A stretch of 64,000 nt of DNA from a bacterium (GTDB taxonomy: Bacteria; Patescibacteriota; Patescibacteriia; JACPHY01): assembly GCA_030646955.1 (NCBI GenBank), contig JAUSKM010000015.1:285-64284 (forward strand). Direction: 5' to 3'. The number at the start of each line of letters is the position of its first letter. Positions within the stretch are counted from its first letter, which is position 1. A program made the translations under genes and the position numbers. Shown one piece after another: positions 5,158 to 60,311 of this stretch. The notes under the pieces were generated by a model. It was not told the DNA's origin and made no database searches. It saw nothing but the letters and a program-made list of their open reading frames with translations.

Positions 5158-5200
5158 ATATCGGGATGGTAGCAGCAACAATAGGAACCCGAAAATGGGA

Positions 5201-6802
5201 TCACCCTCGCGCCTCGTCTGCGCCACCAAAGGCACGGGGGACGGCGCGGAGGGCGTGACGACGGAGCGCGAGCGCAAGCGCGGTAATTTCATCGGATTTG
5301 AGGAGGATACCAACGGCAAGGTACGCCCCGAAGCCCAGGCCCCCTGCCAGGAAACCCTGCAACGCGATGCCGATGAATGTCTGTGTCCCCACAAGCGCGG
5401 CGATGCTGGGCTTCACCACCTGGATGACCACGCCCATGACGAGTGCAGCGATGAGGAATTTCCCGATGGCGATACCCGTACGCCGTCCATCCAGCCCGCC
5501 GGCGCGGCGACGCAATGCGACGAGGAGCGCGAGCGCCTGGACGATACCCGCGAGCGCCAACGCCAACGCGAGGCCCTGCGGACCAAATGTGCGACCCAGG
5601 AACCACGCAGCCGCGATGCCGAGCACATCCGCCGCCACGCTGATGACGAACGGCGTGCGCGTGTCCTCGAAGGCGTAAAACGCACGCGTCAAAAGCGGGA
5701 TGAGCATCGCAAAAAAGAGTCCAACGCCAAACGCCTCCACCGTTTCCAATGTTCGAACCGTATCCTCCCATCCAAACGCGCCAGCACCCAGGAGCACGCG
5801 GACGATCTGCGCTTTGAGTGCCAAGAGCATCACGACAGCAGGCAGCGCGAGGAGCGCGATCTGTCGAAACGTCGCAGAGAAATACTGCCGGAACTGTTCG
5901 ATGTCACCAGCAGCAACTGCGCTCGACAAGCGCGGGAATGCGGCGATGGCGAACGCGATGCCAATGAGCGCGATCGGCACATGTTGGATGTTCGCCGCAA
6001 ACGTAAACACCGCGAGCGATCCCGCGGCGAGCGTGGACGCAATGCCGGCGACGATGAGCAGCTGCACCTGCTGCGCGCCAAGCGATGCGACACGCGGGAG
6101 AAGGTTCACAAACAACAATCGCACCTCGCGATCGCGCCACGTTGGCGCCCACTGTACCCGCAGCCCCGTACGCGCCGCAGCCACCCATTGCATCGCAAGG
6201 TGCGCGGCAGCACCCAGCACCACGCCCCACGCGATTCCTACCGGGCCGAGCATCGGCGCCAGCGCGAGGACGCCGCCGATGATGCCAAGATTGTAGAGGA
6301 GCGGTGCCGCCGCAAACGCGAAGAAGCGCTCCTCTGCCTGCAATACGCTACCAATGACAGATGAGAGGCCTAGGAGTGCCGTCGCGATGAACAGGATGCG
6401 GCCAACCTGCACGGTGAGCGCAAGCTGCTCCGACGAAAACCCAGGCGCAATAGCCGCAAAGAGCGGCGTCGCCGCAAGTGCGCCAATGCTCCCACACAGC
6501 AGGAGGAGAAACGCGGCATTGGTGAACACCTGCGAGGCGAAACGATGTGCGCGGTCACGCCCACCCGCGCGCAGCCGAATAAAAATCGGCACGAACGCCG
6601 CGGAGAGCGCGGCGAGGCCAAGGAGGTTGAAGGCAAAATCCGGGATGCGGAATGCCGCGTAGTACGCGTCGAGTACCGACCCCGCACCAAACGTGGTGGC
6701 GAGGATGCGATCGCGCACGAGTCCCAGGATGCGGCTCGCAAGCGAGAGCGCTGCAATGAGCAGCGCGGAAGCGACGGTGGTTTGTCCCAAGCGCATAGGC
6801 AA
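5201..6802 (-). CDS. murJ: Lipid II flippase MurJ (MviN family)
   Basis: 533 aa polytopic membrane protein. The N-terminus SRILGLVRDRILATTFGAGSVLDAYYAAFRIPDF is typical of MurJ/MviN. Confidence 0.9.
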   Translation of the reverse strand: MPMRLGQTTVASALLIAALSLASRILGLVRDRILATTFGAGSVLDAYYAAFRIPDFAFNLLGLAALSAAFVPIFIRLRAGGRDRAHRFASQVFTNAAFLLLLCGSIGALAATPLFAAIAPGFSSEQLALTVQVGRILFIATALLGLSSVIGSVLQAEERFFAFAAAPLLYNLGIIGGVLALAPMLGPVGIAWGVVLGAAAHLAMQWVAAARTGLRVQWAPTWRDREVRLLFVNLLPRVASLGAQQVQLLIVAGIASTLAAGSLAVFTFAANIQHVPIALIGIAFAIAAFPRLSSAVAAGDIEQFRQYFSATFRQIALLALPAVVMLLALKAQIVRVLLGAGAFGWEDTVRTLETVEAFGVGLFFAMLIPLLTRAFYAFEDTRTPFVISVAADVLGIAAAWFLGRTFGPQGLALALALAGIVQALALLVALRRRAGGLDGRRTGIAIGKFLIAALVMGVVIQVVKPSIAALVGTQTFIGIALQGFLAGGLGFGAYLAVGILLKSDEITALALALRRHALRAVPRAFGGADEARG

Positions 6803-7422: not shown

Positions 7423-7815
7423 TCAATCATCAACGCGCGTATTGTTTCGTGTATCGCCGAGTACTCCGAGCGCCGCTGCTGCCATGAACAAACCAAAATC
7501 GCGCACGGCGAGATCCCCGCGTGCCACGGCAGCGAGAATGGTCAAAAGGTGAAGCGCGACAACCGCGGCAACGATACGCACTCGCCACCCCACCACCAGC
7601 AACACGCCGAGGAGCACCTCCGCCACACCCACCACGCGCAGGAACTGCACGGGATCCATCGGCAACAATCCGATCATCCACGGCGGAACAAATCCCAGCC
7701 ACGACACGGTATCTGCAATCTTGCCATATCCAAAGATGAGCAGCACTGCACCCAACCCCAAACGCAACAGCAATGCCGCAGCGCTGGGGCCCGTAAAACG
7801 AGAAAGCATCCTCAT
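7423..7815 (-). CDS. DoxX-family membrane protein
   Basis: MRMLSRFTGPSAAALLLRLGLGAVLLIFGYGKI...VAEVLLGVLLVVGWRVR: about 4 TM segments with DoxX-like composition. The track start at 7980 runs through a repeat unit, so the start was trimmed to the ATG at 7815. Confidence 0.7.
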   Translation of the reverse strand: MRMLSRFTGPSAAALLLRLGLGAVLLIFGYGKIADTVSWLGFVPPWMIGLLPMDPVQFLRVVGVAEVLLGVLLVVGWRVRIVAAVVALHLLTILAAVARGDLAVRDFGLFMAAAALGVLGDTRNNTRVDD

Positions 7816-7837
7816 ACTTTGACAATAAAATTGGTGC

Positions 7838-7868
7838 GTGTGAGATTGCTTCGCATGCTCGCAATGAC
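7838..7868. repeat. Single family-T repeat unit (TTGC/GCAA type)
   Basis: gtgtgagattgcttcgcatgctcgcaatgac. Its reverse complement is gtcattgcgagcatgcgaagcaatctcacac. Confidence 0.8.
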
Positions 7869-7924
7869 AATACTTAGGAATAAGTGGACTTAACATTTTC
7901 GACACCGTTTTCAAACACGGTCTC

Positions 7925-9187
7925 CTACGGCTTGTATAATTCATCGATGGCCGGCTCCCACACCGTGCAATGACTTGCACCGCCTATCGCGAACAGTTTT
8001 TTGTCGGGGTAGCGCTTTTTCAGCTCGCGAAACACATCGATTGCATGTTCGTCGCGAACAATATTCATGTCCCGCAAGACATCGCTGGTGACCCTTCGTT
8101 CACCGACCAACTGCGGCTCGGTCATTTCGATAATCCTGGCCCTATCTTCTTTCCTTAACTCCGGATCATCGAACCGTTTCACAAGCTCCGCCAAGGAGAA
8201 GCCCATATGCCTCTGCAGCGAGGCATCGATATTTTCATTCGTGAGTTCGATGCCTAAAGAAACTGCCTCTTCAACGCCGCCCCCCGACAAAGCAACACCA
8301 CTACGTCTGCGTATCTCGTCGGCGGAGGGCCTCACATTGGATTCATGGGGTTTATTTTCGTCATAGGATGCATGGGCCCTGCGTGCGGCATAGGTGACCA
8401 TCCAGTCGGTCACATCTTGTGGTCCGTATTTGTGCTCACCGGTGGTTTCATCTTTCAACTTAAGGACCTCGCGAATCTGCTCGATTGTACGCGTATCCCA
8501 AGTCCGGACCTCTTTCCCTTCCCGCATCGCCAATAAAGCAATGTACGGCTCCTCCCCTTTTTCCGCGATAACCCGCGCGGGATCTTTTTTCAGGATTTCG
8601 CTCAACGACTCCCCCGGGTAGAAGTCCTCAAGCGAAAGTCCGCCTTCGATCAGCACGATGTCCGGATCTTCTTGCATCAACGCATCGACCGTGGGTTGCA
8701 TCGGCTCAACTGTATTTGCGTGCGCAAAACCACGTCCAATGAACTCCGCACCGTTTTCGGAACGTTTCTTGATCTCGTTGATTTCCTTACCGCTTTCGCG
8801 GGCCGCCTTCTCTTCCTCCGGCGTCAAAAGAAGGAGATGCAATTTCTCGATCTCAAGTGCATCCAAGCGCGCGCCACGATTACGCTCCACACGCACTTGA
8901 TCGTCGACCATATGCCCGTGTATTGCCTGCTTGGATTCTTTACTAATAATTCCTAGTGCCGCCTCCAATCCATCCACTTCTCCCTGATAATCCTCTTCTA
9001 GTGTTGCGCGCATTTCAGATTCGTCTTTCGAGGAATCCGCAGCATGAGACAGAAGACGAATATCTTGATCGATTTTCGTGATCCGCTCCTTGCGCACCTG
9101 GGCAATGGTCTCCGGGGTTTTCGCTGCAACTTTTTCCGGAACAGCCCCCATCGAATCCATTTTCGGCAGTTCTTTTCCCGAGGACAT
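7925..9187 (-). CDS. Hypothetical protein, possible TraB/Tiki/ChaN-superfamily domain with an N-terminal coiled-coil extension
   Basis: 420-aa ORF in a visibly lower-GC stretch. Candidate superfamily motifs occur in order: RGFAH (GxxH), IVLIEGG (E), NIVRDEHAI (RD), FAIGGASH (GxxH). Motif-level inference only. Confidence 0.6.
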   Translation of the reverse strand: MSSGKELPKMDSMGAVPEKVAAKTPETIAQVRKERITKIDQDIRLLSHAADSSKDESEMRATLEEDYQGEVDGLEAALGIISKESKQAIHGHMVDDQVRVERNRGARLDALEIEKLHLLLLTPEEEKAARESGKEINEIKKRSENGAEFIGRGFAHANTVEPMQPTVDALMQEDPDIVLIEGGLSLEDFYPGESLSEILKKDPARVIAEKGEEPYIALLAMREGKEVRTWDTRTIEQIREVLKLKDETTGEHKYGPQDVTDWMVTYAARRAHASYDENKPHESNVRPSADEIRRRSGVALSGGGVEEAVSLGIELTNENIDASLQRHMGFSLAELVKRFDDPELRKEDRARIIEMTEPQLVGERRVTSDVLRDMNIVRDEHAIDVFRELKKRYPDKKLFAIGGASHCTVWEPAIDELYKP

Positions 9188-9205
9188 AAAAATACAACAA
9201 CCGCA

Positions 9206-9286
9206 TCAAGTCCGTTTTTCTCTCGTGCACAAACGCAACAGAAACGCCGCGATCTCGGAGCCCGTAAAGCGAAAAAACATCCTCAT
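9206..9286 (-). pseudogene. Duplicated, truncated doxX 5' end
   Basis: ATG at 9286 reads MRMFFRFTGSEIAAFLLRLCTREKRT*, compared with the doxX N-terminus MRMLSRFTGPSAAALLLRLG. Roughly 70 nt (9230-9300) matches 7761-7830 at an estimated 80 percent by eye, including the upstream leader. Confidence 0.55.
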
Positions 9287-9414
9287 ACTCTGACAATCAT
9301 CTTCGTCACCGCGTCCTGAAATACGCGAAACGCCTTCCGCCACTCTTTCTTGTGCGTGTATTGATCGTCATTGCTGACACGTACGCAGTACTGACACCCA
9401 CACCAATGATACCA

Positions 9415-9852
9415 TCAGTGTGCCTTCGGGTACGCGCAGTTTACCATCCACTGCACCCCGAACCGATCCCGAACACTCCCGTAGTAGTCACCCCATGGCT
9501 GGTCTGCAATATCCATCTCCACCGTGCCGCCGTCTGCAAGCGCATGGAAGATGCGATCCGCCTCCTCCTTGCTGTCGGGATGAATGGAAATGTACGCGTT
9601 ATTTCCCTGCACCAACTTCTGCCCAAGCGACGGCAGCGTGTCCGAAGCCATGAGCTTATCGTCGCCAACTGGAAGGCAAATGTGCATCATCCCGTTCTCC
9701 TCCTCTTTGGGAATGTGTACGCCTTCCATCGGCATGTCCTTGAACCGCACCCTGGAGCTGAACTCCCCGCCAAAGATGGAACGGTAAAACGTGAACGCCT
9801 CCTCTGCATTCCCGGCAAAGTTGAGATACGTGTTGAGTTTTATATTCTCCAT
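9415..9852 (-). CDS. VOC/glyoxalase-fold protein (PhnB-like)
   Basis: MENIKLNTYLNFAGNAEEAFTFYRSIFGG...MHICLPVGDDKLMASD...IADQPWGDYYGSVRDRFGVQWMV is the typical PhnB/VOC pattern. Start trimmed from 9981 (which runs through repeats) to the ATG at 9852. Confidence 0.8.
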   Translation of the reverse strand: MENIKLNTYLNFAGNAEEAFTFYRSIFGGEFSSRVRFKDMPMEGVHIPKEEENGMMHICLPVGDDKLMASDTLPSLGQKLVQGNNAYISIHPDSKEEADRIFHALADGGTVEMDIADQPWGDYYGSVRDRFGVQWMVNCAYPKAH

Positions 9853-9862
9853 TTTTCCATCT

Positions 9863-9942
9863 GTCATTTCGAACGCAGCGAGAAATCTCACACGATCCAA
9901 TAACTGCCGACACGCGAGATTGCTTCGCGGACTCGCAATGAC
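9863..9942. repeat. Inverted pair of family-T units (TTTC type + TTGC type)
   Basis: gtcatttcgaacgcagcgagaaatctcacacg (9863-9894) and cacgcgagattgcttcgcggactcgcaatgac (9911-9942). Confidence 0.8.
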
Positions 9943-9977
9943 AGTACGTATGTGATGCCGTGAAATTGCAATCGTTA

Positions 9978-11294
9978 TCATCCTTCGTACGCCCGCTGCA
10001 GCTGCTCCACATCAAACTTCTTCATCGCGAGAAATGCCTTCGTCACACGCGCACGACGTTCTGGATCCTCATCGCGCATCATCGCGTCCATTGCCGTGGG
10101 CACGATCTGCCAGGAAACGCCGTACGTGTCCTTGAGCCATCCGCATTGCTCTGCTTCCGGCACGGCAGAGAGCCGCTCCCAAAAATAATCGATCTCCGCC
10201 TGCGTATCGCACCGTATCAGGAACGAGAATGCCTCATTGAACGTAAACGCATGCTTATGCGCGCTGTCCATCGCTATAAACTGCTGCCCTACCAACGCAA
10301 ACTCTCCGTACATCACCGTCCCCTCCTTATCCGGCGCAGCATTCGCACCGTACCTACTCATATCGCCCACCTTCGCATCGCGAAATACTGACGCATAGAA
10401 CCGCATCGCTTCCTCTGCTTTCCCGCACCGCTCTCCAACGAACAGAAGCGATGGGGTGATGCGCTGGATACTCTTGCGACCGTCCATGCATATGAGCTGC
10501 CACGAGAGGCCATACCGGTCTTGCACCCATCCGTACCGCGTACTGAACGGATATGCACCAAGCTCCATCAGTACTTTCCCGCCATCCGCAAGCTGCTCCC
10601 AGAGCGCGTCCACCTCCGCAGGCGTTGCGCACGCGACCATGAATGAGATTGCCGGAGTAAATTGGAAGTACGGCCCTGCGCTGATGCACATGAACTCCTG
10701 CCCCGAGAGCACAAAGGACACAACATCTACCGCGCCAGAAGGCGTCCCCTGCAACGTAGTTACATACTCCACGCGCGAATCCGGAAAAAGCGACGTGTAA
10801 AATTCCGCCGCCTCTCGCGCCTCCTTGTCGTACCAAAGGTGAGGCACAATTTTTTGCATAGTGGCAACCTCCACCGTGCCGCGCTCGACGTACCGCTTGA
10901 AATTGGTGAGGATCGCCTGCCAACCATCCCGCTGCATCTGCTCCGGATTCAGCGACTCCGGATCAAACGTCTCGGTCACGTATACGTGCTCCAGCATCTG
11001 CGTGAACGTCACGCGCACATGCCGACCGTCATCCATGTCGTACTCGATCAATGCATACTTGCGAACGGCAGCATGCGTTCCCGAAAAATCAAACCTTGCG
11101 CTGCCATCCTTTGCAGCCATCACCGTCGTAAATCGTCCACCCACACGTACATCATTCTCCGCCGACGGCGCCTCCTACTCATCCGACGCAAACGCCCAGC
11201 CGACAATGTGCTCCGACTGCGTAAAACACTCCCACACCCTCGCCATGGGAGCGCGCACATCCACGTCCACTGTGATTGGCTGTTGTTTGTTCAT
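9978..11294 (-). pseudogene. SRPBCC(AHSA1-like) + 2x VOC (PF06983-like) fusion gene interrupted by an in-frame TAG
   Basis: From the ATG at 11294: MNKQQPITVDVDVRAPMARVWECFTQSEHIVGWAFASDE-TAG(11177-11175)[25 protein letters not shown]. The frame then continues through two VOC repeats ([17 protein letters not shown]...; [22 protein letters not shown]...). The same frame is used on both sides of the stop. Confidence 0.7.
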
Positions 11295-11479
11295 GTGATT
11301 CTTCACTGTAGCAGCGCCATGATGACCTTTTCGTGAATTGAATTCATCCGACCATGTCAGCGTACCACAACGCAAAACGCCCCTGCTTTCGCTCATAATA
11401 CTCTTCCCTCGCAGAGCAACGAAAAACCTACCGCCATCAATGCATACGCAGGAACACCACGTGCACTGTACTGCATGTA

Positions 11480-11517
11480 TACAAGGAAAGACCGCCCCAC
11501 GAAGGGCGGCCTTGTAC
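11480..11517 (-). terminator. Rho-independent terminator after the Asp/Cys-rich lipoprotein gene
   Basis: The minus strand reads ggtacaaggccgcccttcgtggggcggtctttccttgta: a GC stem followed by a T-rich tail. Confidence 0.55.
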
Positions 11518-11541
11518 CAACAACGGAGCACCGTACGTCGC

Positions 11542-12378
11542 TCAATCACCTGAGAGAAACTCGGCCCATGCCGCACACTCCTCGAGGTCGTCGGTATCGA
11601 TGAGGCGGTCGCAATCGTTGTCGACGTGATCATTGCACACCTCTTCATTGCACGCGGGATCGCAGGTGAGCAACGCTACAGGAGCATCACACTCCCAAAA
11701 CCCCTCCTGCAACAATCCGTCGTTCTCCCATATGCAGATCACGCCGATCCAATCACCGTCGTCCGTCACCCCGTCGCAGTCGTTGTCGACGCCATCGCAG
11801 ATTTCCATGGGACATGCTGCGGTCGAATCGAACACACAATCGCCATCATCCCAATCCACCATGCCATCGCAGTCGTTGTCGGCACGATCATGACACAACT
11901 CGACATTCTCCTCACAGGACGGACCTCCAGCGATAGGGAGCCCGCATGAGAGCGTTGTGTGTGGCACGCCCTCTGTACCGGGAGCCCCGCACGTACGCAG
12001 GCCTGCATTCACTGCATCCCAGTACTCCATGTAACACGCCTGCTCTTCCCAAGGACCATTGTCCGTGATACCGTCGCAGTCGTTATCGATACTATCGCAG
12101 CGCTCCTCAGAGCACTCGGTCGCGTCATCGCCGGAATCATCATCCGCGCTGACGGCATCATCGTCGGATGTGTCGCCGTCGTCGTTTGCGGTTGCTTGGG
12201 AGTCATCGTCGGTGATGACTCCATCGTCGTCCGCTGCCATCGTATCGTCATCGACGGAAGTTGCGACGCTATCATCGTCTCCAACCGGAAAACTTCCTTC
12301 CGGCATATCGCTCCCGCACGCCTGCACTGCCGTTATGAGCGCCGTGATCATGGAAAGAACCAACCATACGGTACGCAT
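11542..12378 (-). CDS. Asp/Cys-rich lipoprotein with four DNDCDG-type putative metal-binding repeats
   Basis: MRTVWLVLSMITALITAVQACG has a signal peptide plus lipobox. An acidic low-complexity region follows, then CDSIDNDCDGITD, CHDRADNDCDGMVD, CDGVDNDCDGVTD and CNDHVDNDCDRLID. There is a strong SD (aaggaggtgcgg) upstream of the ATG at 12378. Confidence 0.75.
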   Translation of the reverse strand: MRTVWLVLSMITALITAVQACGSDMPEGSFPVGDDDSVATSVDDDTMAADDDGVITDDDSQATANDDGDTSDDDAVSADDDSGDDATECSEERCDSIDNDCDGITDNGPWEEQACYMEYWDAVNAGLRTCGAPGTEGVPHTTLSCGLPIAGGPSCEENVELCHDRADNDCDGMVDWDDGDCVFDSTAACPMEICDGVDNDCDGVTDDGDWIGVICIWENDGLLQEGFWECDAPVALLTCDPACNEEVCNDHVDNDCDRLIDTDDLEECAAWAEFLSGD

Positions 12379-12404
12379 CCGCACCTCCTTCTTTGTTCCC
12401 CGCA

Positions 12405-12433
12405 AATATACATCCAAGCAGCCTCTCCGTCAA
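12405..12433 (-). promoter_or_regulatory. Sigma-70-like promoter for the lipoprotein gene
   Basis: Minus strand: TTGACG (12433-12428), a 17-nt spacer, then TATATT (12410-12405). This is about 27 nt upstream of the start codon. Confidence 0.5.
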
Positions 12434-12591
12434 GTTCCCCAAAATATATTCACCAAAAAGCTAATCGTTCGACGTGTTTCCACGGATGTCAAAAACCCCA
12501 CCGAAGCAGCGAGGCCATTGACATCTCCGCATCGTGAACAATGCTAGAGCCGCGGTACAGGAACATCGATAATACATCCGACTCCCCACAA

Positions 12592-13260
12592 CTAAAACTT
12601 CCTGACCTTCATGATGCAAGCATCGTCCACGCCTCCCTTTGCGCTCGCATACATCGCGTAGAGAAAGGCATCTCGGTCGATTGCATGTTGGCCGCCGAAT
12701 TCCTCACCCCAATCGGGGTCGTTGACGTAGACATTCTCTTGATCGATGCCGGTCACGACATTGAAATGAATGCTGAATCTTGGCGGGAGGTCAGTATTGT
12801 GAAGAAACCAATGTGTGAGAGGAATAAATACGGGCCGCTCTTCGTTTACTTCCACTTCGATATCACTCATGAGCGGAACCCGCGGCGTGATAGTGCCGCC
12901 TGCATCCACAAATTGAAGAAAGTGATCGAGAGCGATCGGATCACATTCTCCTTTCATGAGCGGTTTGAGCGACCAGAGATACCTCTTGAGCTCATCCGTA
13001 TTCTTGAACGATGAAAAGAGCGAAAAAAGGGATGGGTGCATCGTAATAATCTCGACCGAAAAACCTCGCTTAAGCAAGTACGTTCCGACTTGCGGGGTAA
13101 CTGTCCCCCACGAGTACGTTCCGAGTTCCTTTTTCATCTCATCAAAGGAAAACGACACCTTGTAGTACGCAAGCAACATCGCAAGACATGCGGGACCACA
13201 ATCGCTGGATCCTTCAGCTTGTCGAACAAGAGGAACAGATAGTTTCGTCATACTACCCAC
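12592..13260 (-). CDS. Stand-alone C39-like (papain-fold) cysteine peptidase
   Basis: VPLVRQAEGSSDCGPACLAMLLAYY gives the Q...C nucleophile motif, with HFNVVTGID...VYVNDP providing downstream His/Asp. The stretch is lower in GC. The track start is GTG at 13260; the first ATG is at 13251. Confidence 0.75.
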   Translation of the reverse strand: MGSMTKLSVPLVRQAEGSSDCGPACLAMLLAYYKVSFSFDEMKKELGTYSWGTVTPQVGTYLLKRGFSVEIITMHPSLFSLFSSFKNTDELKRYLWSLKPLMKGECDPIALDHFLQFVDAGGTITPRVPLMSDIEVEVNEERPVFIPLTHWFLHNTDLPPRFSIHFNVVTGIDQENVYVNDPDWGEEFGGQHAIDRDAFLYAMYASAKGGVDDACIMKVRKF

Positions 13261-13291
13261 AGTCTACCAGTTCGAATCCCATCACGGGAGC

Positions 13292-13319
13292 AAACAAAAC
13301 CCCAGCATTGCTGCTGAGG
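13292..13319 (-). terminator. Rho-independent terminator after the 225-aa membrane protein gene
   Basis: Minus strand: cctcagca gcaa tgctgggg followed by ttttgttt. Confidence 0.6.
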
Positions 13320-13417
13320 ATTTGTTGGCTCGGGCTCGTGGACCTTGATCGTCTTAACGGGTCAATTGCTCATTGGATTTCGAGAGGGCACGACTGACCA
13401 GAAATAATTAGGAAATC

Positions 13418-14095
13418 TCAAGGCAGATTGGACTCCCCCACTGCGACCAGCTTTCCATCCCGAAGATACACATGCAATGTCCAGTCTCGATGATCTTCCC
13501 AGGGGGCATAGGTTAGCACGGTGTAGCCATCGGACGCACTCGTTTTCACTGGTTCACCAAACGCTCGAAAAACAGTCACCGTATCGATTCCGACAACCTC
13601 CCCATGCGAACGCGGATCGGTAAACTTAATGAGTCGGGCACTCTTTTCATGCTGATTAGCCCGCTCTCGAAGATACTCCTTGGCATGGGAGCCACTCATC
13701 CAATACGCACGCTCCCAAAATGGAACCTGAATATGCTTTGTGACCTGTTCCCCACCTCGTCGAAGCGGATTGTCATCAATCTGTAAACGAAACTCTCGCA
13801 ACCATGGCGTCCAAACGACCATCCAAATAGTGAGCACGAACACAACGAATGCGGACGGGAGATACACAATCGCGACCGTTTTCGGCACCCGCTTCTTCAC
13901 CGTGAAAACCATGACCATGGTGAAGATGGCAACCGCGAGAATAACAGACAGCACAAGCATACCAACCTCAAACCCCACACCTCGACCCTCGAGTGCAGAA
14001 CTCCACCCCGCAAGAAAAGCACACGCGACCATGAAACCCGAGAATGCCGCCAGGAAAACCATGCAAACGCTCAACAAGTTTGGTTTTTTCATCAT
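13418..14095 (-). CDS. Hypothetical membrane protein (3 TM + soluble C-terminal domain)
   Basis: MMKKPNLLSVCMVFLAAFSGFMVACAFLAG..., followed by two more hydrophobic helices and then a domain of about 110 aa. Lower GC. No recognisable motif. Confidence 0.6.
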   Translation of the reverse strand: MMKKPNLLSVCMVFLAAFSGFMVACAFLAGWSSALEGRGVGFEVGMLVLSVILAVAIFTMVMVFTVKKRVPKTVAIVYLPSAFVVFVLTIWMVVWTPWLREFRLQIDDNPLRRGGEQVTKHIQVPFWERAYWMSGSHAKEYLRERANQHEKSARLIKFTDPRSHGEVVGIDTVTVFRAFGEPVKTSASDGYTVLTYAPWEDHRDWTLHVYLRDGKLVAVGESNLP

Positions 14096-14368: not shown

Positions 14369-16171
14369 CTACTCCATAATGGGCGCGGCTGCGGTGCCTC
14401 GTGCCGGTTCGCTCGCTGCGATGACGCGGGAAGAAGCGAACACCTCCAGGGCGGCGTCAACGGTGGTGTCGCCGGTGGCGGGGCGGCAGGCGCGGTCGAG
14501 CTCTTCAAAGTGCTCCACCGCAATCGCGACGGGATCCAGGTGGAGGGGCGTGCCGACGATGCGTGCGATGGCGCTGGTGAGCGGCTCTATGATGCCGGGC
14601 TGCCGCACTTTCTCCGCGTGGAGCTTGTAGCGGAAGCCGATGGTGAGCGTCCCGTCTGCAATGCGTTGCGGGCGACCGCCTTCCAGGAGGTACGGGATGG
14701 AGCGGTTGACGTCCGCGAGATCGCGGATGATGTGGTGCCATTGTTGCTGGACTTTCGAGAGCGCCTCGGTGGCGCTCTGGATGACGGTGGATGTTGGAAG
14801 TTGCTCCCTCCTCCCGGCGGAAGGGGGAGGAATAAAACGCACCCCCTCTGACTCCCCCTCTTGAAGAGGGGGAGGAACCGGATCGGATGTATCTGTTACC
14901 GTCGTTGGGAGTTTGATGCTTGCAGGGGTACGAGCGCGCGAGGCGTGTTGGGGGGTACGGGCTGCACCGCCGGTGGTGGCGGGTGGAGCATCGTCGTCAT
15001 TGCTCCGCGATGCGTCTCGCTGAGACGAGGCGAGCTGCGCGGGATTCATTTTGCCTGGTGATGCGCTCGCTGCGGGCGCTGCGGGAACGAATGGGGAGCG
15101 CGCGAGGAGCGTAAGGACGGCAACCTCGAGGAGGAAGAACGGACGGTCTGCACGACCGATGCGATCCAGGAGTTCCGTGAACATGCGAAGCGCGAACACC
15201 TGTGCCGTCGCAACGGCACCTTGCTGGGCGGCAGCGCGTGCGGCGCTGCGCAGCTCGTTGATGATGTCGCGACAAAACGCATCCGCATCGCATCCCTCGG
15301 CTGATGCAGCATCGAGCGTGGCCAGGGCCAATGCGGTGTCGCCGGCACCAACCGCGCGAAGCAGCGTCTGGACATGCACCATGTTTGATTGCGGGAGCAC
15401 GAGCGCGGCAACATCGGCCGTCACTCGCTTCCCGCCCACCGCCATGAGCTGCCCCAACAGGGATTCTGCGTCACGCACGGAGCCGTCTGCCGCGCGGACT
15501 ACCTGCGCGAGCACCTCGTCATCCACGGCAACATCCTCTACCCCTGCAAGCATCCGGAGCCGCTCCGTGAGCGTCCCATCCCCCACGCGCCGGAACGTAA
15601 AATGCTGGCACCGTGACGTGATCGTCTCCGGCACCTTCTGCATTTCCGTTGTCGCAAGGATGAAGTGGACGTGCTCTGGCGGCTCCTCCAGCGTCTTGAG
15701 GAGCGCATTAAAGGACGCCGTCGAGAGCATGTGCACCTCGTCAATGATGTACACCTTCTTTGCTGCAACTGCGGGGGCGATACGCACCGCCTCGATGATG
15801 TACTCACGCACCTTCTCCACCTGCGTGTTGGATGCCGCATCAATCTCCACGACATCCATGCAACGTCCTGCGGTAATTTCCTCGCACCGGATGCAGGCGT
15901 TACAAGGCACGGGAAGTGTTTGCTTCGACCGGTGCTTCGCGCGAGTTTCTTCGTCGCTCCGCTCCTCGGAATGACGAGGAGCGAGGCAATTCACCGCCTT
16001 CGCCAGGAGCCGCGCGGTGGTGGTCTTTCCAACGCCGCGCGGACCGGAGAAAAGGTACGCATGCGCAACACGACCCGCCGCGATAGCCGCGACGAGCGTG
16101 CGCGTGACATGCTCCTGCCCCACGACGTCCTCAAACGTCTGCGGGCGATGCTTACGATACAGTACGGGCAT
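14369..16171 (-). CDS. dnaX: DNA polymerase III subunit gamma/tau
   Basis: MPVLYRKHRPQTFEDVVGQEHV, Walker A GPRGVGKTT, DEVHML, TSRCQ. Start trimmed to the ATG at 16171. It carries two repeat-derived segments (features at 14805 and 15941). Confidence 0.9.
   Translation of the reverse strand: MPVLYRKHRPQTFEDVVGQEHVTRTLVAAIAAGRVAHAYLFSGPRGVGKTTTARLLAKAVNCLAPRHSEERSDEETRAKHRSKQTLPVPCNACIRCEEITAGRCMDVVEIDAASNTQVEKVREYIIEAVRIAPAVAAKKVYIIDEVHMLSTASFNALLKTLEEPPEHVHFILATTEMQKVPETITSRCQHFTFRRVGDGTLTERLRMLAGVEDVAVDDEVLAQVVRAADGSVRDAESLLGQLMAVGGKRVTADVAALVLPQSNMVHVQTLLRAVGAGDTALALATLDAASAEGCDADAFCRDIINELRSAARAAAQQGAVATAQVFALRMFTELLDRIGRADRPFFLLEVAVLTLLARSPFVPAAPAASASPGKMNPAQLASSQRDASRSNDDDAPPATTGGAARTPQHASRARTPASIKLPTTVTDTSDPVPPPLQEGESEGVRFIPPPSAGRREQLPTSTVIQSATEALSKVQQQWHHIIRDLADVNRSIPYLLEGGRPQRIADGTLTIGFRYKLHAEKVRQPGIIEPLTSAIARIVGTPLHLDPVAIAVEHFEELDRACRPATGDTTVDAALEVFASSRVIAASEPARGTAAAPIME
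14805..14874. repeat. Two adjacent G/C-tract hairpins inside the dnaX 3' half
   Basis: ctccctcctcccggcggaagggggagga and ctccccctcttgaagagggggag. Translated as PPLQEGESEGVRFIPPPSAGRRE. Confidence 0.65.
15941..15975. repeat. Family-T repeat unit inside the dnaX zinc-module region
   Basis: The reverse complement gtcattccgaggagcggagcgacgaagaaactcgcg is near-identical to the intergenic unit gtcattgcgaggagcgaagcgacgaagcaatcccgg at 24924-24961. Translated as RHSEERSDEETRA. Confidence 0.75.
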
Positions 16172-20866: not shown

Positions 20867-22306
20867 CTATGCCCCCCCTCGAACCTTCGGCCCGTCTTGC
20901 GTATCTTCAACGGTGTACCCCAGCGCGGCAATCTGCGCGCGGAGACGATCAGCGCGTGCCCAATCCTTCTCGGTGCGTGCGTGCTCTCGCGCACGCACGA
21001 GCTCCAGCACCTCCGGCGGAACGACGAATGGTTTACCCAAAACGTCGCGCAGCCCTAGTGCAAATACCTCATCCGCATACGCAACGAACGCGCTCTGCTC
21101 CACGGTTCGCTCGCTCTTCTTGAGGCATTCCCAGAGCAACGCGAGCGCTTTTGGCGTGTCGAGATCGTCGTTCATGGCATCCAAGAACCGCTCGGTGGTC
21201 TTGTGCACCTTCACCTTCAGCTGCGCGCTCACGCGTACCGGCGGCTTGGGGAATTCGCGGCACTGTGTTCGCAGATGCTCCAGCGCATGCTGCGCAGCGG
21301 TGAGGGATTCCCAGGTAAAGTTGAGCGGCGAACGGTAGTGCGCGCCCAGCACCAAATACCGATATGCAAGCGGATCAATCCCCCGCTCAATCAACTGCGT
21401 GATGGTAATGAGGTTCCCCTCGGACTTCCCCATGCGCTTGCCGTCCACGGTCAGGAATGCGCCATGGAGCCAATACGCTGCGAGCGGCTTCCCGTACGCC
21501 GCTTCGGACTGCGCAATCTCGTTCGTGTGATGGACGGGAATGTGATCAATCCCGCCCGTGTGGATATCAAACGGCTGCCCCAACAGCTCACGGCTCATGA
21601 CGGAGCACTCCAAATGCCACCCGGGGAACCCTGTCCCCCACGGCGATTCCCACTCCTGCTGACGTTTCCTCTGTTCCCCCCCCTCCCGCTGGAAGGGGGG
21701 GCTGGGGGGGGTAGGGTTTGAAAGTTTCCACAGCGCGAAATCGTGCGGCAATCGCTTCTCGCCCACCGCAACGCGCATACCGCCCGCCTTCTCCTCCAGC
21801 TTCTGACCGCGGAACGCCGTGCCGTAGGACGCGAGCTTCGCGGTGTCAAAATACACACCGTCCGATGTCGTATAGGTGTACCCCTGCTTCTCCAAACGCT
21901 CTACCAGCGCAATCTGCTGCGCGATGTACTCCGTTGCCTTGGGCATCGCGTCTGGTGTGAGGATGTGCAGCCGCTCAAGGTCCTGCAGGAATGCCTGCGT
22001 GTAAAAATCCGCCAGTTCCCGCGCAGACTGCTTGCGCTGCGCAGCTGCGCGTTCCAATTTATCCTCGCCGGTATCCGCGTCGCCCACGAGATGTCCTACG
22101 TCCGTAATGTTCATGACGTGCTTCACCCGCAACCCATTGAGCAGGAGCGTCCGCCGAAGCACATCCGCAAACACGTACGACCGCAAATTCCCAACGTGCG
22201 CAAAATCGTACACCGTCGGCCCGCACGTGTACACGCGAACGCTCCGACCGCGCAGCGGCCGGAACGGTTCGATCGTCTTGGTGAGGGAGTTATGGAGCGC
22301 GAGCAT
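20867..22306 (-). CDS. cysS: Cysteine--tRNA ligase
   Basis: VYTCGPTVYDFAHVGNLRSY gives the HIGH-type motif, GWHLECS the zinc site and KRMGKS the KMSKS-type motif. Start trimmed to the ATG at 22306. It contains a repeat-derived insert (feature at 21676). Confidence 0.92.
   Translation of the reverse strand: MLALHNSLTKTIEPFRPLRGRSVRVYTCGPTVYDFAHVGNLRSYVFADVLRRTLLLNGLRVKHVMNITDVGHLVGDADTGEDKLERAAAQRKQSARELADFYTQAFLQDLERLHILTPDAMPKATEYIAQQIALVERLEKQGYTYTTSDGVYFDTAKLASYGTAFRGQKLEEKAGGMRVAVGEKRLPHDFALWKLSNPTPPSPPFQREGGEQRKRQQEWESPWGTGFPGWHLECSVMSRELLGQPFDIHTGGIDHIPVHHTNEIAQSEAAYGKPLAAYWLHGAFLTVDGKRMGKSEGNLITITQLIERGIDPLAYRYLVLGAHYRSPLNFTWESLTAAQHALEHLRTQCREFPKPPVRVSAQLKVKVHKTTERFLDAMNDDLDTPKALALLWECLKKSERTVEQSAFVAYADEVFALGLRDVLGKPFVVPPEVLELVRAREHARTEKDWARADRLRAQIAALGYTVEDTQDGPKVRGGA
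21676..21716. repeat. G/C-tract element inside cysS
   Basis: ccccccccctcccgctggaagggggggctggggggggtaggg. Translated as NPTPPSPPFQREGGEQ. Near-identical to the element in rfbD at 56235. Confidence 0.75.
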
Positions 22307-24803: not shown

Positions 24804-24961
24804 GCCGGAATTGCCACGTCGAGGACTCCTCGCAATGACAATACCGGTGTCATTGCGAGTCCGCGAAGCAATCCCGGCCATGTGCAGCACTGTGCTGCGT
24901 CGCCATCGCAAGAGTCCTGCTATGGCCGGGATTGCTTCGTCGCTTCGCTCCTCGCAATGAC
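24804..24961. repeat. Three family-T units, two of which form a long hairpin
   Basis: gccggaattgccacgtcgaggactcctcgcaatgac (24804-24839) faces gtcattgcgagtccgcgaagcaatcccggcc (24849-24879). A third, inverted unit ggccgggattgcttcgtcgcttcgctcctcgcaatgac lies at 24924-24961. Confidence 0.85.
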
Positions 24962-26090: not shown

Positions 26091-26099
26091 AGGGAAGAT

Positions 26100-26141
26100 G
26101 CTAGCTGCTGGCTGCTAGCAGCTAGCAGCTAGATACTAGCA
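26100..26141. repeat. Six heptamer-periodic GCTAGCW-like units directly upstream of dnaJ
   Basis: gctagct gctggct gctagca gctagca gctagat actagca. The tract starts 10 nt from the dnaJ start codon and is also self-complementary (gctagctgc / gcagctagc). Confidence 0.7.
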
Positions 26142-26239
26142 CCATCGCTCATCACCGTAGCATGCTGCTGCGCGATGGACAATCATTTCCCCTCCCTCTC
26201 CGCTTCCAGGGGAGCGGTGGTGCGATACCGCGCCACCGC

Positions 26240-26310
26240 ACAGTCATACATGGCCACCTCTCCCCCTCTAGCTCCCCCTCCCCCCATGAGTACGTGCGGG
26301 GAGGGGGAGG
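26240..26310 (+). repeat. About 72-bp G/C-tract element, long form, copy A
   Basis: acagtcatacatggccacctctccccctctagctccccctccccccatgagtacgtgcggggagggggagg aligns along its length with 45806-45878 and with the reverse complement of 60164-60235. Confidence 0.85.
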
Positions 26311-26417
26311 ACAAGAACATCGGAGTCGCTGGAGACACTTTTCGCATCCGCCACAAATGGAAGCGCCAGCGCGATACCAAGCATCGCGAGGATCAACACC
26401 TTCGTACGACGTTGCAT
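26268..26417 (-). CDS. Possible 49-aa secreted peptide in the dnaK-dnaJ spacer
   Basis: MQRRTKVLILAMLGIALALPFVADAKSVSSDSDVLVLPLPARTHGGRGS has a signal-peptide-like N-terminus, but the last third is encoded by the repeat element. Speculative. Confidence 0.2.
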   Translation of the reverse strand: MQRRTKVLILAMLGIALALPFVADAKSVSSDSDVLVLPLPARTHGGRGS

Positions 26418-26527
26418 ACAAAACTGCGGAAAATAAAAAAGCCGTCCGGCACAACGGCACAGGCGCGGCGTGCCTATACACTGTTGATGGTATACCCCCC
26501 CACAACACTGTAAAGGGTACGTCACGC

Positions 26528-26561
26528 ACACCAGCGGAGCCGTTTCCGGCTCCGCTGGTGT
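26528..26561 (-). terminator. 15-bp perfect hairpin just downstream of dnaK
   Basis: acaccagcggagccg tttc cggctccgctggtgt. No strong T tract, so this may be a partial terminator or a processing site. Confidence 0.55.
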
Positions 26562-29776: not shown

Positions 29777-29857
29777 TCCTTTGCGAGTCCGTGAGGGCGC
29801 AGCAATCTCTCTGCCTGATTGGCCGGGATTACCACGTCGCGGACTCCTCGCAATGAC
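29777..29857. repeat. Two family-T units (one degenerate, one inverted)
   Basis: cctttgcgagtccgtgagggcgcagcaatctctc and ggccgggattaccacgtcgcggactcctcgcaatgac. Confidence 0.7.
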
Positions 29858-29943
29858 ACAAACATACGAAATTCTACCTCTCAAAAAGAACGAGACCCGC
29901 ACTTTCGTACGGGTCTCAGGTAATACTCCTCGAAGTTTGCGGC

Positions 29944-43884: not shown

Positions 43885-44952
43885 TCACTGCGCTGCTTGC
43901 ATGACCACGCGCGCAAGCGTGGCGGCGGCGTTGTCGGGAAACATGGTGGCGATGGAACGACCGAGTTTGGCGCGACGGTTGGCATCCTCGAGAAGCGCAT
44001 GGATGCGTTGTGTGAAGACGCCGGGCGCGACGAGGGCCCGCGAATTCCAAACCTCCGCAGCACCGCGCTCGTTGAGTTGCTGCGCGTTGTCTTCCTGGTG
44101 AGTGGATGGCATGGGCACCAGCACCGTCGGTTTACCCAGGCACCCCAGCTCCGCGATCGTCCCCATGCCCGCACGACTCACCACAAGATCCGCAGCAGCG
44201 AGCGCGGGAATCATATCGTCGGCGAGAAACTCAAATTGTCGATAGGATCCGGCCCACTCCCCCTTCCCAGCGGGAGTGGGGGGAACATTGCCCTGCTTCC
44301 CTTTCCCCGTCACATGAATCACGTCGGCAATCGCCGTCAGCTCGGGCAATGCGGCCCAGACAAGGTGGTTGAGCGCCATTGCGCCGGTGCCACCGCCAAG
44401 AATGAGGAGTACGTGTCGATTTCCGGAGAATCCAAAATGCCGCTGTGCTTCGCGCACATCCGCCACGCACGCATCGCGCACGGCGGCACGCACCGGCACG
44501 CCGATGCCCTCAGCGCCAAATGTCGCCGTCCGCGCGGACGAAAACCGCGCCACAAGCGTGTTGGCCAATGATGGACGCGCGTCCAGTTGGTGGATGACGA
44601 TCGGGATGCGCAGCACGCGCGCCGCAAGCATCACCGGCACCTGCACGTATGACCCCGCGCCCACCACCGTATCTGGCCGCTCCCGACGCAGAAACGCAAG
44701 TGCGCGCACGAACGCCCATGCAATTGCAAACGCATCCACGATATTCCGCCCATCCAGGTACCGTCGCAGCTTGCCTGCCGGAAACGCGATGAACCGGATC
44801 CCGTCGCGCTCCACCAACACCCGCTCCGGCCCCCGCCGCGTCCCAATCCACATCATCACCGCCCGCGGCCGCACATGCCGAATCTCCTCCGCGACAGCCA
44901 AGAGCGGGGTCACCGATCCCAATGTTCCGCCGCCGGTGAAGAGGATGGTCAT
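43885..44952 (-). CDS. murG: UDP-GlcNAc--lipid I GlcNAc transferase MurG
   Basis: MTILFTGGGTLGSVTPLLAVAEE glycine-rich loop, a GT28 two-domain layout, and C-terminal RAGMGTIAEL. Confidence 0.9.
   Translation of the reverse strand: MTILFTGGGTLGSVTPLLAVAEEIRHVRPRAVMMWIGTRRGPERVLVERDGIRFIAFPAGKLRRYLDGRNIVDAFAIAWAFVRALAFLRRERPDTVVGAGSYVQVPVMLAARVLRIPIVIHQLDARPSLANTLVARFSSARTATFGAEGIGVPVRAAVRDACVADVREAQRHFGFSGNRHVLLILGGGTGAMALNHLVWAALPELTAIADVIHVTGKGKQGNVPPTPAGKGEWAGSYRQFEFLADDMIPALAAADLVVSRAGMGTIAELGCLGKPTVLVPMPSTHQEDNAQQLNERGAAEVWNSRALVAPGVFTQRIHALLEDANRRAKLGRSIATMFPDNAAATLARVVMQAAQ
44254..44284. repeat. G/C-tract hairpin inside murG
   Basis: cccactccc ccttcccagc gggagtggg has a 9-bp perfect stem. 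Translated as PPTPAGKGEWAG. Confidence 0.6.
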
Positions 44953-45656
44953 GCGTGGGCGTGAAGATACATACTCCGAGCATCGCTCGGCAGCCGCTCG
45001 ATGGCGGAGCGAAGCATGGTGCGGGGCATCGCTGCGGCGTGCAGACGGAGGAATGTTTCGAGGGCGGCCGTGGAACGCTTCCCGGCCTCACGCAGCATCC
45101 AACCGGTTGCTTTGTGGATGAGGTCATGCGGATCGCGTAGGAGGATCTGCGCGATGCGAAACGTGTCCGTCAACTGGCCATGCCGAATGAACGCGTACGT
45201 CGCGACGATGGCGATGCGCCGCTCCCAGAGCTGCGGCGAGCGTGCGAGACGGGCCAGCACACCGCGCGGACGACGCAGGAGGTATGCGCCGACGATGTGG
45301 TACGCAGAAGTGTCCACGAGATCCCAGTTGTTCACGCGCACGGTATTGTGGAGGTAACACTGGTACACCGCGCGCTGCTCCCGCGCATCGCCGCCGTTGA
45401 ACCGCGCGATGAGCAGCAGGAGCGCCACGAAACGATCCTCATGGGAGCGCGATTGCAGCAACTGCTCCGCGTGCGTGAACGAGCATGCGTGGTACTGCTT
45501 CGCAATCGTGCGCATCGTTGGGACAGTAACGCCAAGAAATTGATCCCCCTGTGCGTATTCCCCTGCTCCGGTCTTAAAAAACCGCGCACACGCTGCCGCA
45601 CGCGACGGATCCGCCGCACTCCGTATCGCGCGTTTGATCGTGGGAAGAGAGGCCAT
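44949..45656 (-). CDS. DNA alkylation repair protein (AlkD-like HEAT-repeat family)
   Basis: RAAACARFFKTGAGEYAQGDQFLGVTVPTMRTIAKQY...NNWDLVDTSAYHIVG...WERRIAIVATYAFI matches the AlkD/PF08713 pattern. Its stop overlaps the murG ATG (ATGA). Confidence 0.8.
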   Translation of the reverse strand: MASLPTIKRAIRSAADPSRAAACARFFKTGAGEYAQGDQFLGVTVPTMRTIAKQYHACSFTHAEQLLQSRSHEDRFVALLLLIARFNGGDAREQRAVYQCYLHNTVRVNNWDLVDTSAYHIVGAYLLRRPRGVLARLARSPQLWERRIAIVATYAFIRHGQLTDTFRIAQILLRDPHDLIHKATGWMLREAGKRSTAALETFLRLHAAAMPRTMLRSAIERLPSDARSMYLHAHA

Positions 45657-45729
45657 AGTGCGCTCCTTGATGCTCGGTGCTCGGAATCTGGGCTCTTCGC
45701 CCTTTTCTGTCGCTCATGCTCTGTTTGAT

Positions 45730-45878
45730 CCCCTCCCTCCCCGCGCGTACTCGCGGGGGGAGGGAGGGTTAGGGAGGGAGAGGTGGGACGGAATGGCAAC
45801 ATGGTACAGCCCATCCATAGCCACCTCTCCCCCTCCTGCTCCCCCTCTCCCCACGAGTACGTGCGGGGAGGGGGAGGG
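45730..45878. repeat. Inverted pair of long G/C-tract elements (about 150-bp composite palindrome)
   Basis: 45730-45803 (cccctccctccccgcgcgtactcgcggggggagggaggg...) is in the same orientation as 60164-60235. 45806-45878 (acagcccatccatagccacctctccccctcctgctccccctctccccacgagtacgtgcggggagggggaggg) is in the opposite orientation. Confidence 0.85.
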
Positions 45879-45885
45879 TAAGGAG

Positions 45886-48084: not shown

Positions 48085-48242
48085 CGTCACCTTCGAGCGA
48101 TACTTCACTTCCGTCATTTCGAGCGCAGCGAGAAATCTCACACGCAATACTCTATCGAACACGATACGGTTGACATGTACTGCTTACGAATGTTTCTCAA
48201 CCCCCACATCATGTGAGATTCCTCGGCCGACCTCGGAATGAC
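48085..48242. repeat. Family-T units upstream of mraY (one degenerate, one TTTC type, one inverted TTCC type)
   Basis: gtcatttcgagcgcagcgagaaatctcacacg (48113-48144) and tgtgagattcctcggccgacctcggaatgac (48212-48242). Confidence 0.8.
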
Positions 48243-60071: not shown

Positions 60072-60163
60072 ACCGTCTCCATTCTCGCACACGAACGGCG
60101 CCAAAGCAACTCCTCAAAAAAGTAGGTTCTTCCGGCTTTCGTGTCGCCGAGTACGCTTCTTAT

Positions 60164-60235: not shown

Positions 60236-60311
60236 GTGATCGTGCGATGCAGATGGGGCGACAACCGACAGGAAAGCCGGAAGAACCAAAAAAGTACGAC
60301 ATCGCGCCGCA

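Follow-up and report, generated by a model that had tools for sequence, protein, structure and literature searches.

The 64,000-nucleotide stretch of contig JAUSKM010000015.1 analyzed here (the window) carries a repeated C/G-tract hairpin element that resembles repetitive extragenic palindromes (REPs) and occurs there in four long copies. By homology, the window is from a high-GC, Uhrbacteria-like genome of the Candidate Phyla Radiation (CPR/Patescibacteria), an assignment based on the closest named homologs of its FtsW, which belong to Candidatus Uhrbacteria (65-69% identity; a Logan sequence reaches 74%), and one that the gene content fits. At ~62% G+C, the window encodes recJ, lepA, dnaX, a VirD4-like coupling protein, cysS, grpE-dnaK-dnaJ, a Mur ligase, a penicillin-binding protein, a giant surface protein, murG, mraY, ftsW, rml genes, and glycosyltransferase family 2 (GT2) genes. 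All four long copies are extragenic and lie in spacers within strings of co-directional minus-strand genes, in the orders dnaK/copy/dnaJ, ftsW/pair/alkD-like gene followed by murG, and 189-aa gene/copy/GT2 gene; two are sense and two antisense to transcription. An earlier reading of this stretch (the original prediction) had noted four long copies and no coding capacity. The copies are present at the coordinates and on the strands then given, and the element is indeed a noncoding, nonautonomous repeat, with no transposase-type Pfam domain in the 50 window open reading frames (ORFs) scanned. The long copies, referred to below as 26240, 45806, 45730, and 60164, are laid out as follows.

26240-26318, + (C-rich strand +): long copy 1 (26240), dnaK-dnaJ spacer; hairpin 26272-26309, C-tract1 26254-26268
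45806-45885, + (C-rich strand +): long copy 2 (45806), right half of a head-to-head doublet; hairpin 45839-45876; abuts the ftsW stop codon (45886-45888)
45728-45803, - (C-rich strand -): long copy 3 (45730), left partner of the doublet, more diverged than the other three; hairpin 45731-45768
60155-60236, - (C-rich strand -): long copy 4 (60164), spacer between the 189-aa gene and a GT2 gene; hairpin 60165-60202
45730-45878, no strand: head-to-head doublet resembling a REPIN (REP doublet forming hairpins); 149-bp palindrome with a 34-nt spacer

A 23-nt core of the element (GAGTACGTGCGGGGAGGGGGAGG) matches the window four times at up to three mismatches, with 0.00 matches expected from 100 shuffles, and two other parts of the long element likewise match only at the four long-copy sites of the window. 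Repeat finding and local alignment give pairwise identities of 79-92% over 57-94 nt and delimit a shared unit of ~80 nt, from (C)ACAG to GAYAAGAA(GC) (26239-26318, 45806-45886, and 60155-60236), which reaches slightly beyond the extent first described. In copy 45730 the homology is shorter, covering 45728-45786 with a weak left part out to 45803. Because the source is a metagenome-assembled genome (MAG), and such repeats break short-read assemblies, we considered whether the copies could be an assembly artefact or a chance low-complexity similarity, the former having been named at the outset as an outcome that would overturn the original prediction. Within the reach of the present analysis, this reading is already refuted by the shuffles, by the presence of the family in an isolate genome and 30 other assemblies, and by two independent Logan contigs (run SRR13727527), which match the window at 100% identity along 2347 and 2620 bp and reproduce parts of two copies exactly. 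These contigs end inside copies 45806-45878 (L001) and 60164-60218 (L116); hence the repeats exist in the reads, and breaking within them is the behavior expected of a true repeat. In addition, the copies differ mutually at 8-21% of positions, and their flanks are unique.

Read on the C-rich strand, each long copy starts with a 20-nt left arm (ACAGCCCATCCATAGCCACC), followed by a first C-tract (C-tract1, CTCTCCCCCTC), a 2-3-nt linker, and a hairpin. The hairpin pairs a C-arm with a G-arm over 12 bp, as in the original prediction. Past a 1x1 C/C mismatch, an inner stem of 4 bp follows (CAYG/CGTG; in copy 45730, CGCG/CGCG), which is capped by an AGTA loop. C-tract1 is itself an imperfect repeat of the C-arm. 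The predicted energy of the hairpin is -35 to -38 kcal/mol, with z values of -1.9 to -3.8 versus shuffles on the C-rich strand, and all stem cells are paired across the four long copies (64/64). Three stem pairs have changed on both sides, all of them in copy 45730, and two further pairs carry one-sided C-to-T changes that yield G.T on the C-rich strand. As the C-rich strand is untranscribed at both of these loci, the latter changes do not indicate selection on RNA. In copy 60164 the loop (CGAGTACG) could also pair with the 3' flank (CGTACTCG); this candidate pseudoknot was discarded for lack of conservation among the other copies.

Between the ftsW stop codon and the start of the alkD-like gene, two long copies face each other. 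The left copy's G-tract2 (45772-45786) and the right copy's C-tract1 (45821-45835) complement each other, and the arms of the doublet extend over 57 nt with 79% complementarity. Since C-tract1 pairs with the G-tract of the partner in this inverted arrangement, the pair forms one long palindrome, which folds as a single structure at -126.7 kcal/mol (z = -7.8). What had been described as a composite palindrome of about 150 bp in the alkD-like/ftsW spacer is therefore a head-to-head doublet of 149 bp. The remaining two long copies, 26240 and 60164, are singlets.

The core of the element can be written as CCCCCTCT-NN-CTCCCCCTC-loop-GAGGGGGAG, and short elements in relatives share the same layout (CCACCCCCTCT-NN-CTCCCCCTCCC). 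A scan of 185,579 species genomes with the pattern CCCCCTCTNNCTCCCCCTCN{3,26}GAGGGGGAG returned at least 108 stretches. Among the matches listed, to which the counts of this paragraph refer, the core motif is multicopy, with at least 141 exact matches in at least 31 genomes and a block GC of 31-70%. With taxonomy taken as labeled in the record titles, these genomes include Patescibacteria (Uhrbacteria, Andersenbacteria, Saccharibacteria, Liptonbacteria, and others), the cultured Alcanivorax hongdengensis, two further Alcanivoracaceae, and MAGs of Alpha- and Gammaproteobacteria, Chloroflexi, Bacteroidota, Spirochaetes, and Acidobacteriota; the non-CPR MAG labels represent six or more phylum-level groups. 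No match to the core motif was found in 2.9 million viral contigs that were searched for phage carriage.

A covariance model was trained solely on elements from outside the window, 24 in number and all with 3-nt loops, since MAFFT misaligned the G-arms when loop lengths varied; these elements came from other genomes. This model finds eight members in the window (E = 1e-13 to 0.011), comprising all four long copies and four short ones, listed here together with two degenerate copies.

14834-14880, +: short copy inside the C-terminal part of dnaX, reading through in frame; 49.2 bits, E = 1e-13
527-576, +: short copy inside a 233-aa ORF without a Pfam match; 39.3 bits, E = 1.2e-10
26258-26315: model match in copy 26240; 35.8 bits, E = 1.4e-9
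60159-60212: model match in copy 60164; 32.2 bits, E = 1.9e-8
21671-21719, -: short copy in frame in cysS, at a 13-aa insertion that solved CysRS structures lack; 24.4 bits, E = 5.2e-6
45821-45878: model match in copy 45806; 21.8 bits, E = 3.4e-5
56230-56274, -: short copy in frame in rmlD, a 12-14-aa insertion (DLPPLPPLPAGGGI); 15.6 bits, E = 0.0029
45725-45782: model match in copy 45730; 13.7 bits, E = 0.011
44253-44287, -: degenerate hairpin copy in frame in a variable murG loop (VPPTPAGKGEW), ~10 aa; below model threshold
4866-4933, + (G-rich on +): degenerate long-loop copy inside lepA; 4.2 bits in the model

From these matches, the long copies emerge as family members with an enlarged loop of 19-20 nt and an added left arm. 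With the core motif in at least 31 genomes of several phyla, and all four long copies recovered by a model free of window sequence, the suggestion that the motif is specific to this lineage no longer holds for the family. The long form, with its enlarged loop and 20-nt left arm, does appear to be private to the lineage of this organism, as judged from exact sequence matching: its loop core (CCCCNNGAGTACGYGCGGGGAGGG) has no exact match in the 185,579 species genomes or in the JGI metagenomes, and the left arm (CATNCATRGCCACCYCTCCCCCTC) has none in the JGI metagenomes. Elsewhere, the inner hairpin sequence varies by lineage and tends to extend the stem or palindrome; the 20-nt inner part seen in the window is the longest that itself forms a stem.

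Shorter relatives of the element had been proposed at six positions. Those at 545, 14805 (model match at 14834-14880), 21676, and 56235 correspond to significant model matches, and those at 4866 and 44254 proved to be degenerate hairpins below threshold. Overlooked at that stage was that most short relatives have inserted into housekeeping genes without breaking the reading frame. Coding sequences contain at least four such in-frame copies, short or degenerate (CysS, RmlD, LepA, and MurG), and the copy in DnaX is probably a further in-frame insertion; it adjoins a B-like hairpin (14804-14833), which places two adjacent hairpins in the variable C-terminal part of DnaX. The RmlD insertion is missing from two relatives and from solved RmlD structures, and the MurG loop insertion is absent in four relatives and present in one, which has a second one. 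In LepA/EF4, ~30 residues of the G domain (aa 146-180) that are extra compared with solved structures are encoded by the degenerate copy. This protein (3226-5394, -; 722 aa) also has an ~80-aa N-terminal extension before the G domain. The idea that the arms render the element stop-free in all six frames, and hence tolerated in genes, was rejected: 10% of the elements are stop-free versus 31% of shuffles, since linker and loop often create TAA, TAG, or TGA.

Palindromic repeats inserted in frame into protein-coding genes have been described as Rickettsia palindromic elements (RPEs) (PMC10969869, PMC1779305). The copies in CysS, RmlD, LepA, MurG, and probably DnaX are likewise palindromic insertions that add short peptide loops to proteins of a small-genome bacterium. 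At the sequence level they behave like RPEs, which does not prove them to be RPEs. RPEs are ~100-150 bp long, AT-rich, and restricted to Rickettsia, which are host-dependent bacteria. The elements described here are set apart by size and composition, being 30-50 nt long, ~80% G+C, and spread over several phyla, with no apparent sequence relationship to RPEs; on composition and size, membership in the RPE family is implausible.

The neighborhood of the doublet likewise differs among relatives. In five relatives with FtsW proteins of 65-74% identity, ftsW is directly followed by murG, with neither an alkD-like gene nor an element pair. Comparison of gene order thus indicates that the alkD-like gene was gained into this cell-wall/division cluster, together with or before the element doublet. 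The gene itself, coding for an AlkD-like DNA alkylation repair protein (44949-45656, -), separates ftsW from murG and shares 4 nt with the start of the latter. Presence and absence among relatives, together with the REP/BIME-like doublets and arrays found elsewhere (BIME, bacterial interspersed mosaic element; see below), mark the family as inserted or spread repeat DNA, and these sequence comparisons show it to have inserted or spread within this lineage, both in operon spacers and in frame in coding regions. The nonautonomous mobile or recombination-spread element that the original prediction had offered as one of its two options is supported by the same observations.

Paired arrangements recur outside the window. 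Among the matches listed, 38 of 141 (27%) have an inverted partner within 150 nt, compared with 2% of random windows. In an Alphaproteobacteria MAG, 8 of 12 matches are head-to-head, with the inverted partner upstream at a spacer of 32-40 nt; the G-tract on the left and C-tract1 on the right complement each other, which is the layout of the window pair with its 34-nt spacer. In an Uhrbacteria MAG, 8 of 11 matches are instead placed tail-to-tail with a second, B-type hairpin (CTCCCCT-loop-AGGGGAG-G-NNNGG-NGGGGT). This B type is common to CPR lineages and Alcanivorax, similar loops included. Alcanivorax hongdengensis A-11-3 contains arrays of nine units with a period of 98 bp (L046, 3922-4638) and of seven units at ~88 bp (L073, 6644-7200), in which hairpins of the A type (the core motif given above) and the B type alternate in opposite orientation, resembling BIME-2 clusters.

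REPs are known to occur as singlets, as head-to-head and tail-to-tail dimers, and as alternating tandem arrays (PMC2817692, PMC3733652, PMC3116915). The family described here shows the same singlet, dimer, and alternating-array arrangements, built on the same kind of core, a short imperfect palindrome (31-33 nt, 9-12-bp stem) with an asymmetric extra motif. It shares with REPs, BIMEs, and REPINs the presence of copies in operon spacers and the lack of coding capacity and of a target duplication. Its A and B types are combined in composites, to which the Y and Z units combined in E. coli BIMEs can be likened. We therefore favor, with a probability of roughly 0.7, the reading that the element belongs, with an enlarged loop and an extension on the left, to a widespread family of REP-like stem-loops that is mobile or spread by recombination.

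By analogy with REPs, copying would act on single-stranded DNA hairpins through an enzyme supplied in trans and encoded elsewhere, of the kind of REP-associated tyrosine transposases (RAYTs) or of IS200/IS605, and would leave no target duplication; alternatively, the family may spread by recombination between copies. The head-to-head doublet would be the likely replicative or active unit, as in REPINs, and singlets would be its remnants. In the dnaK-dnaJ, ftsW-alkD-murG, and sugar-gene transcripts, the hairpins probably have a passive role, hindering 3' exonucleases or decoupling transcription and translation, which is of the sort described for REPs and not that of a dedicated regulator.

Several observations weigh against this REP-like reading. 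One end of a REP typically carries a tag, GTAG or CGTC, that is conserved and unpaired (PMC3733652). In the flanks of the family elements no consistent GTAG/CTAC or CGTC/GACG tag is present; these flanks read CA or GA upstream and AAA, GAC, or GAT downstream. Unlike those of classical REPs, many copies are intragenic, the arms are homopyrimidine and homopurine, and the long form, at 72-80 nt with a secondary inner stem, exceeds the usual REP size of 20-40 nt. REP sequences are normally species- or genus-specific, which makes it unusual that the same multicopy motif is shared across phyla by CPR bacteria, cultured Alcanivorax, and other MAGs. REP systems include a single-copy RAYT (Y1 transposase) gene flanked by the REPs. 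The search for such genes came up empty in the window, and in ~700 kb of other genomes none was linked to copies; the sole IS200-like gene near a copy is flanked by repeats other than the C/G-tract element (see below). There is no exact empty site at nucleotide resolution among the relatives, so that transposition and recombination or gene conversion are inseparable, and the family copy count rests on 64 kb of the genome, from which the eight matches would extrapolate to ~100 per Mb; for REPs, roughly 100 or more copies in a genome are usual. Finally, one copy lies in a unit with terminal inverted repeats (TIRs) and a target duplication, which points to a DDE-type mechanism for that event at least.

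The unit in question surrounds copy 60164.

60115-60296, no strand: outer unit around long copy 4; a 162-bp unit (60125-60286) with TIRs and a direct repeat

Its inverted repeats (GGTTCTTCCGGCTTTC) are 21-22 bp long and 95% complementary (60125-60146 and 60266-60287), and the unit is flanked by a perfect 10-bp direct repeat, CAAAAAAGTA (10/10; 60115-60124 and 60287-60296), which is the T-run of a small terminator-like hairpin. By its sequence this looks like a classical insertion of a miniature inverted-repeat transposable element (MITE) into the T-run of a terminator. The earlier statement that no terminal features of insertion sequences or MITEs were recognizable is thus correct for three copies and incomplete for copy 60164. 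If the whole family were a MITE mobilized by a DDE transposase, with a length of ~162 bp, 21-22-bp TIRs, and a 10-bp duplication, the other three copies would have to be products of truncation or decay. Besides the TIRs and the duplication of a plausible target, a weak similarity to the right inverted repeat, noticed by eye at the same offset after copy 45730, would be in keeping with such an origin. However, the inverted repeat occurs at this one locus and nowhere else in the window or the fetched loci, local alignments among the four copies stop at ~80 nt, and the short members here and in at least 31 other genomes lack such ends. At the ends of the ~80-nt unit there are no TIRs or target duplication, homology ending at (C)ACAG and GAYAAGAA. 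MITEs such as Correia, Nezha, and ERIC are likewise small, nonautonomous, intergenic, and possibly co-transcribed, and the 60125-60286 unit shares their TIRs and duplication; the family unit itself differs from them in having neither, with one locus as the exception. A MITE origin of the family is therefore improbable, and the simplest reading is that the outer unit is a separate small element carrying, or hit by, one family copy.

The very stable hairpin (z = -1.9 to -3.8 on the C-rich strand) and its compensatory stem changes could also be taken to reflect a cis-acting structured RNA, such as a terminator, an attenuator, an mRNA stabilizer, or a switch between C-tract1:G-arm and C-arm:G-arm pairing, selected to regulate the flanking operons. 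The placement of all long copies in spacers of co-directional gene strings would suit such a role, and two C-tracts competing for one G-tract resemble the logic of an attenuator. Against it, two of the window copies are sense and two antisense to transcription, the orientation relative to flanking genes in other genomes is 18 versus 17 (from crude gene calls), both one-sided C-to-T changes give G.T pairs on the untranscribed strand, and family members are found inside coding sequences. Compensatory changes, moreover, also arise in DNA palindromes through hairpin-templated repair. At gathering threshold, Rfam reports only three tRNAs in the window and nothing at the elements in 10 other loci, so that no described Rfam family accounts for the element; at relaxed thresholds, only eukaryotic microRNA-hairpin models appear, far below cut-off. 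Nor is there an orientation bias with respect to local GC skew (62 versus 70, p = 0.54).

Intrinsic terminators are likewise G+C-rich hairpins downstream of genes, and copy 45806 directly follows the ftsW stop codon. The element differs from them in lacking a T-run after the hairpin on either strand, in occurring in both orientations, and in having much longer stems. The hairpin is flanked by GACAAGAAC, GGTAAGGAG, or GATAAGAAG on one strand and by GCTAGAGG or GCGAGAGG on the other, and consensus scans report no intrinsic terminator at the element hairpins. Taken with the occurrence of both orientations and of members inside coding regions, these results make a strand-specific regulatory RNA unlikely, as one form of the other option of the original prediction (a structured RNA/DNA regulatory motif).

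The G-quadruplex potential noted earlier is borne out in part. The G-rich strand gives G4Hunter scores of 2.4-2.6 in all four long copies. The canonical four-run motif (G3+ runs, loops of 1-7 nt), in contrast, is present in copies 60164 and 45730 and not in 26240 and 45806. Within the window, 6 of 10 canonical G-quadruplex motifs coincide with family elements. Further, the purine arm GAGGGGGAG is mirror-symmetric and has a second pyrimidine tract 2-3 nt upstream, which is the layout that a triplex requires. These features would fit a non-B structure (a G-quadruplex, an i-motif, or an intramolecular Py*Pu-Py triplex) affecting replication, recombination, or transcription. The canonical motif is, however, confined to two of the four long copies, the G-arm is sequestered in a 16-bp hairpin of about -35 kcal/mol, and C-tract1 is more simply explained as the pairing partner within the doublet. 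C+.G-C triplets, in addition, require acidic conditions. We consider it very unlikely that a non-B structure is what the element represents.

Returning to the REP-like family, the element is of a kind already known (REP, REPIN, and BIME, along with RPE-like in-frame insertions). The family itself has no Rfam entry, and literature on Uhrbacteria repeats, Alcanivorax REPs, and REPIN/RAYT systems in Alcanivorax or Patescibacteria yielded no description of it. A paper on G-quadruplex repeats in Xanthomonas and Nostoc was set aside, as it concerns heptamer simple repeats unrelated to the C/G-tract family. What is unusual is the occurrence in CPR genomes, the colonization of essential genes, and the sharing of both the A and the B motif by distant phyla. 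Counting 26 fixed bases in the motif overstates the information it carries, since its arms are self-complementary and also repeated, and the cross-phylum sharing could possibly be convergence in a small pyrimidine/purine sequence space. The shared B-type loops and tails, on the other side, speak for descent from a common ancestor, for horizontal transfer, or for one recognition factor in common. Carried further, the A type (CCCCCTCT-NN-CTCCCCCTC...GAGGGGGAG) and the B type might constitute one ancient or horizontally traveling two-component REP/BIME-like system, shared by CPR bacteria and free-living Proteobacteria, kept by a trans-acting protein or nucleic acid-guided enzyme that recognizes the exact hairpin, and colonizing essential genes in frame in ultra-small genomes, with the long form as a recent derivative; this extended scenario is doubtful, if conceivable.

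CPR/Patescibacteria genomes are small and tightly packed, so that a hairpin repeat multiplying in operon spacers and, in frame, within cysS, lepA, rmlD, murG, and dnaX is a visible evolutionary force. For MAGs it also has practical consequences, as it makes contigs break and genes be mis-called. A motif shared across phyla offers a handle for finding the recognizing enzyme or host factor, and for asking if such elements pass between epibiotic bacteria and other cells; if the sharing proves to be convergence, this is an ordinary REP-like repeat.

In the loci of other genomes, no candidate for such an enzyme stood out. All-against-all BLASTP of ORFs from the 108 loci gave no recurrent, conserved neighbor gene, and a Pfam scan of ORFs bracketed by elements gave only housekeeping enzymes. 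A phmmer search, with an IS200 TnpA sequence as the query, returned one IS200-like Y1 transposase gene (L027, 1547-1975, -). It was rejected as the mobilizer, as it is flanked by two different structured direct repeats of ~90 bp (region 1433-2187) that are not of the C/G-tract type. Past the right repeat of this locus, at a distance of 57 nt, comes a three-part element. In a separate observation, an Uhrbacteria relative (L004; 4973-5015, 5380-5420, and 5396-6803) contains a diversity-generating retroelement with bAvd and a reverse transcriptase, bracketed by two family elements.

The dnaK-dnaJ spacer around copy 26240 holds further structures: downstream of the dnaK stop, a perfect hairpin of 15 bp closed by a GAAA loop; at 26441-26458, a hairpin that resembles a terminator and has a T-run; and a near-perfect palindrome (CTAGCTGCTGGCTGCTAGC / GCTAGCAGCTAGCAGCTAG) immediately upstream of the dnaJ start. 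Given these features, which occupy 26096-26132, 26441-26458, and 26528-26561, dnaJ seems separated from grpE-dnaK. The same spacer includes a 49-codon ORF (26268-26417, -; MQRRTKVLILAMLGIALALPFVADAKSVSSDSDVLVLPLPARTHGGRGS*) whose N-terminus resembles a signal peptide and whose last 14 codons and stop codon fall within copy 26240, so that the 3' end this ORF once had may have given way to the element.

The window also contains a second, unrelated repeat family, TGTCATTGCGAG-N4-CGAAGCAATC, with three exact pattern matches versus 0 expected; it includes an inverted pair at 24804-24878 and several singlets, with further sites at 7830-7876, 9862-9950, 29822-29858, and 48113-48146. A 77-nt direct repeat (78% identity) is present at 7759-7835 and 9230-9306, 1.5 kb apart. 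The surrounding stretch (8000-14000) is lower in G+C (52-57% versus ~62%) and encodes duplicated glyoxalase/3-demethylubiquinone-methyltransferase-like genes and a MopE-type metal-binding repeat protein.

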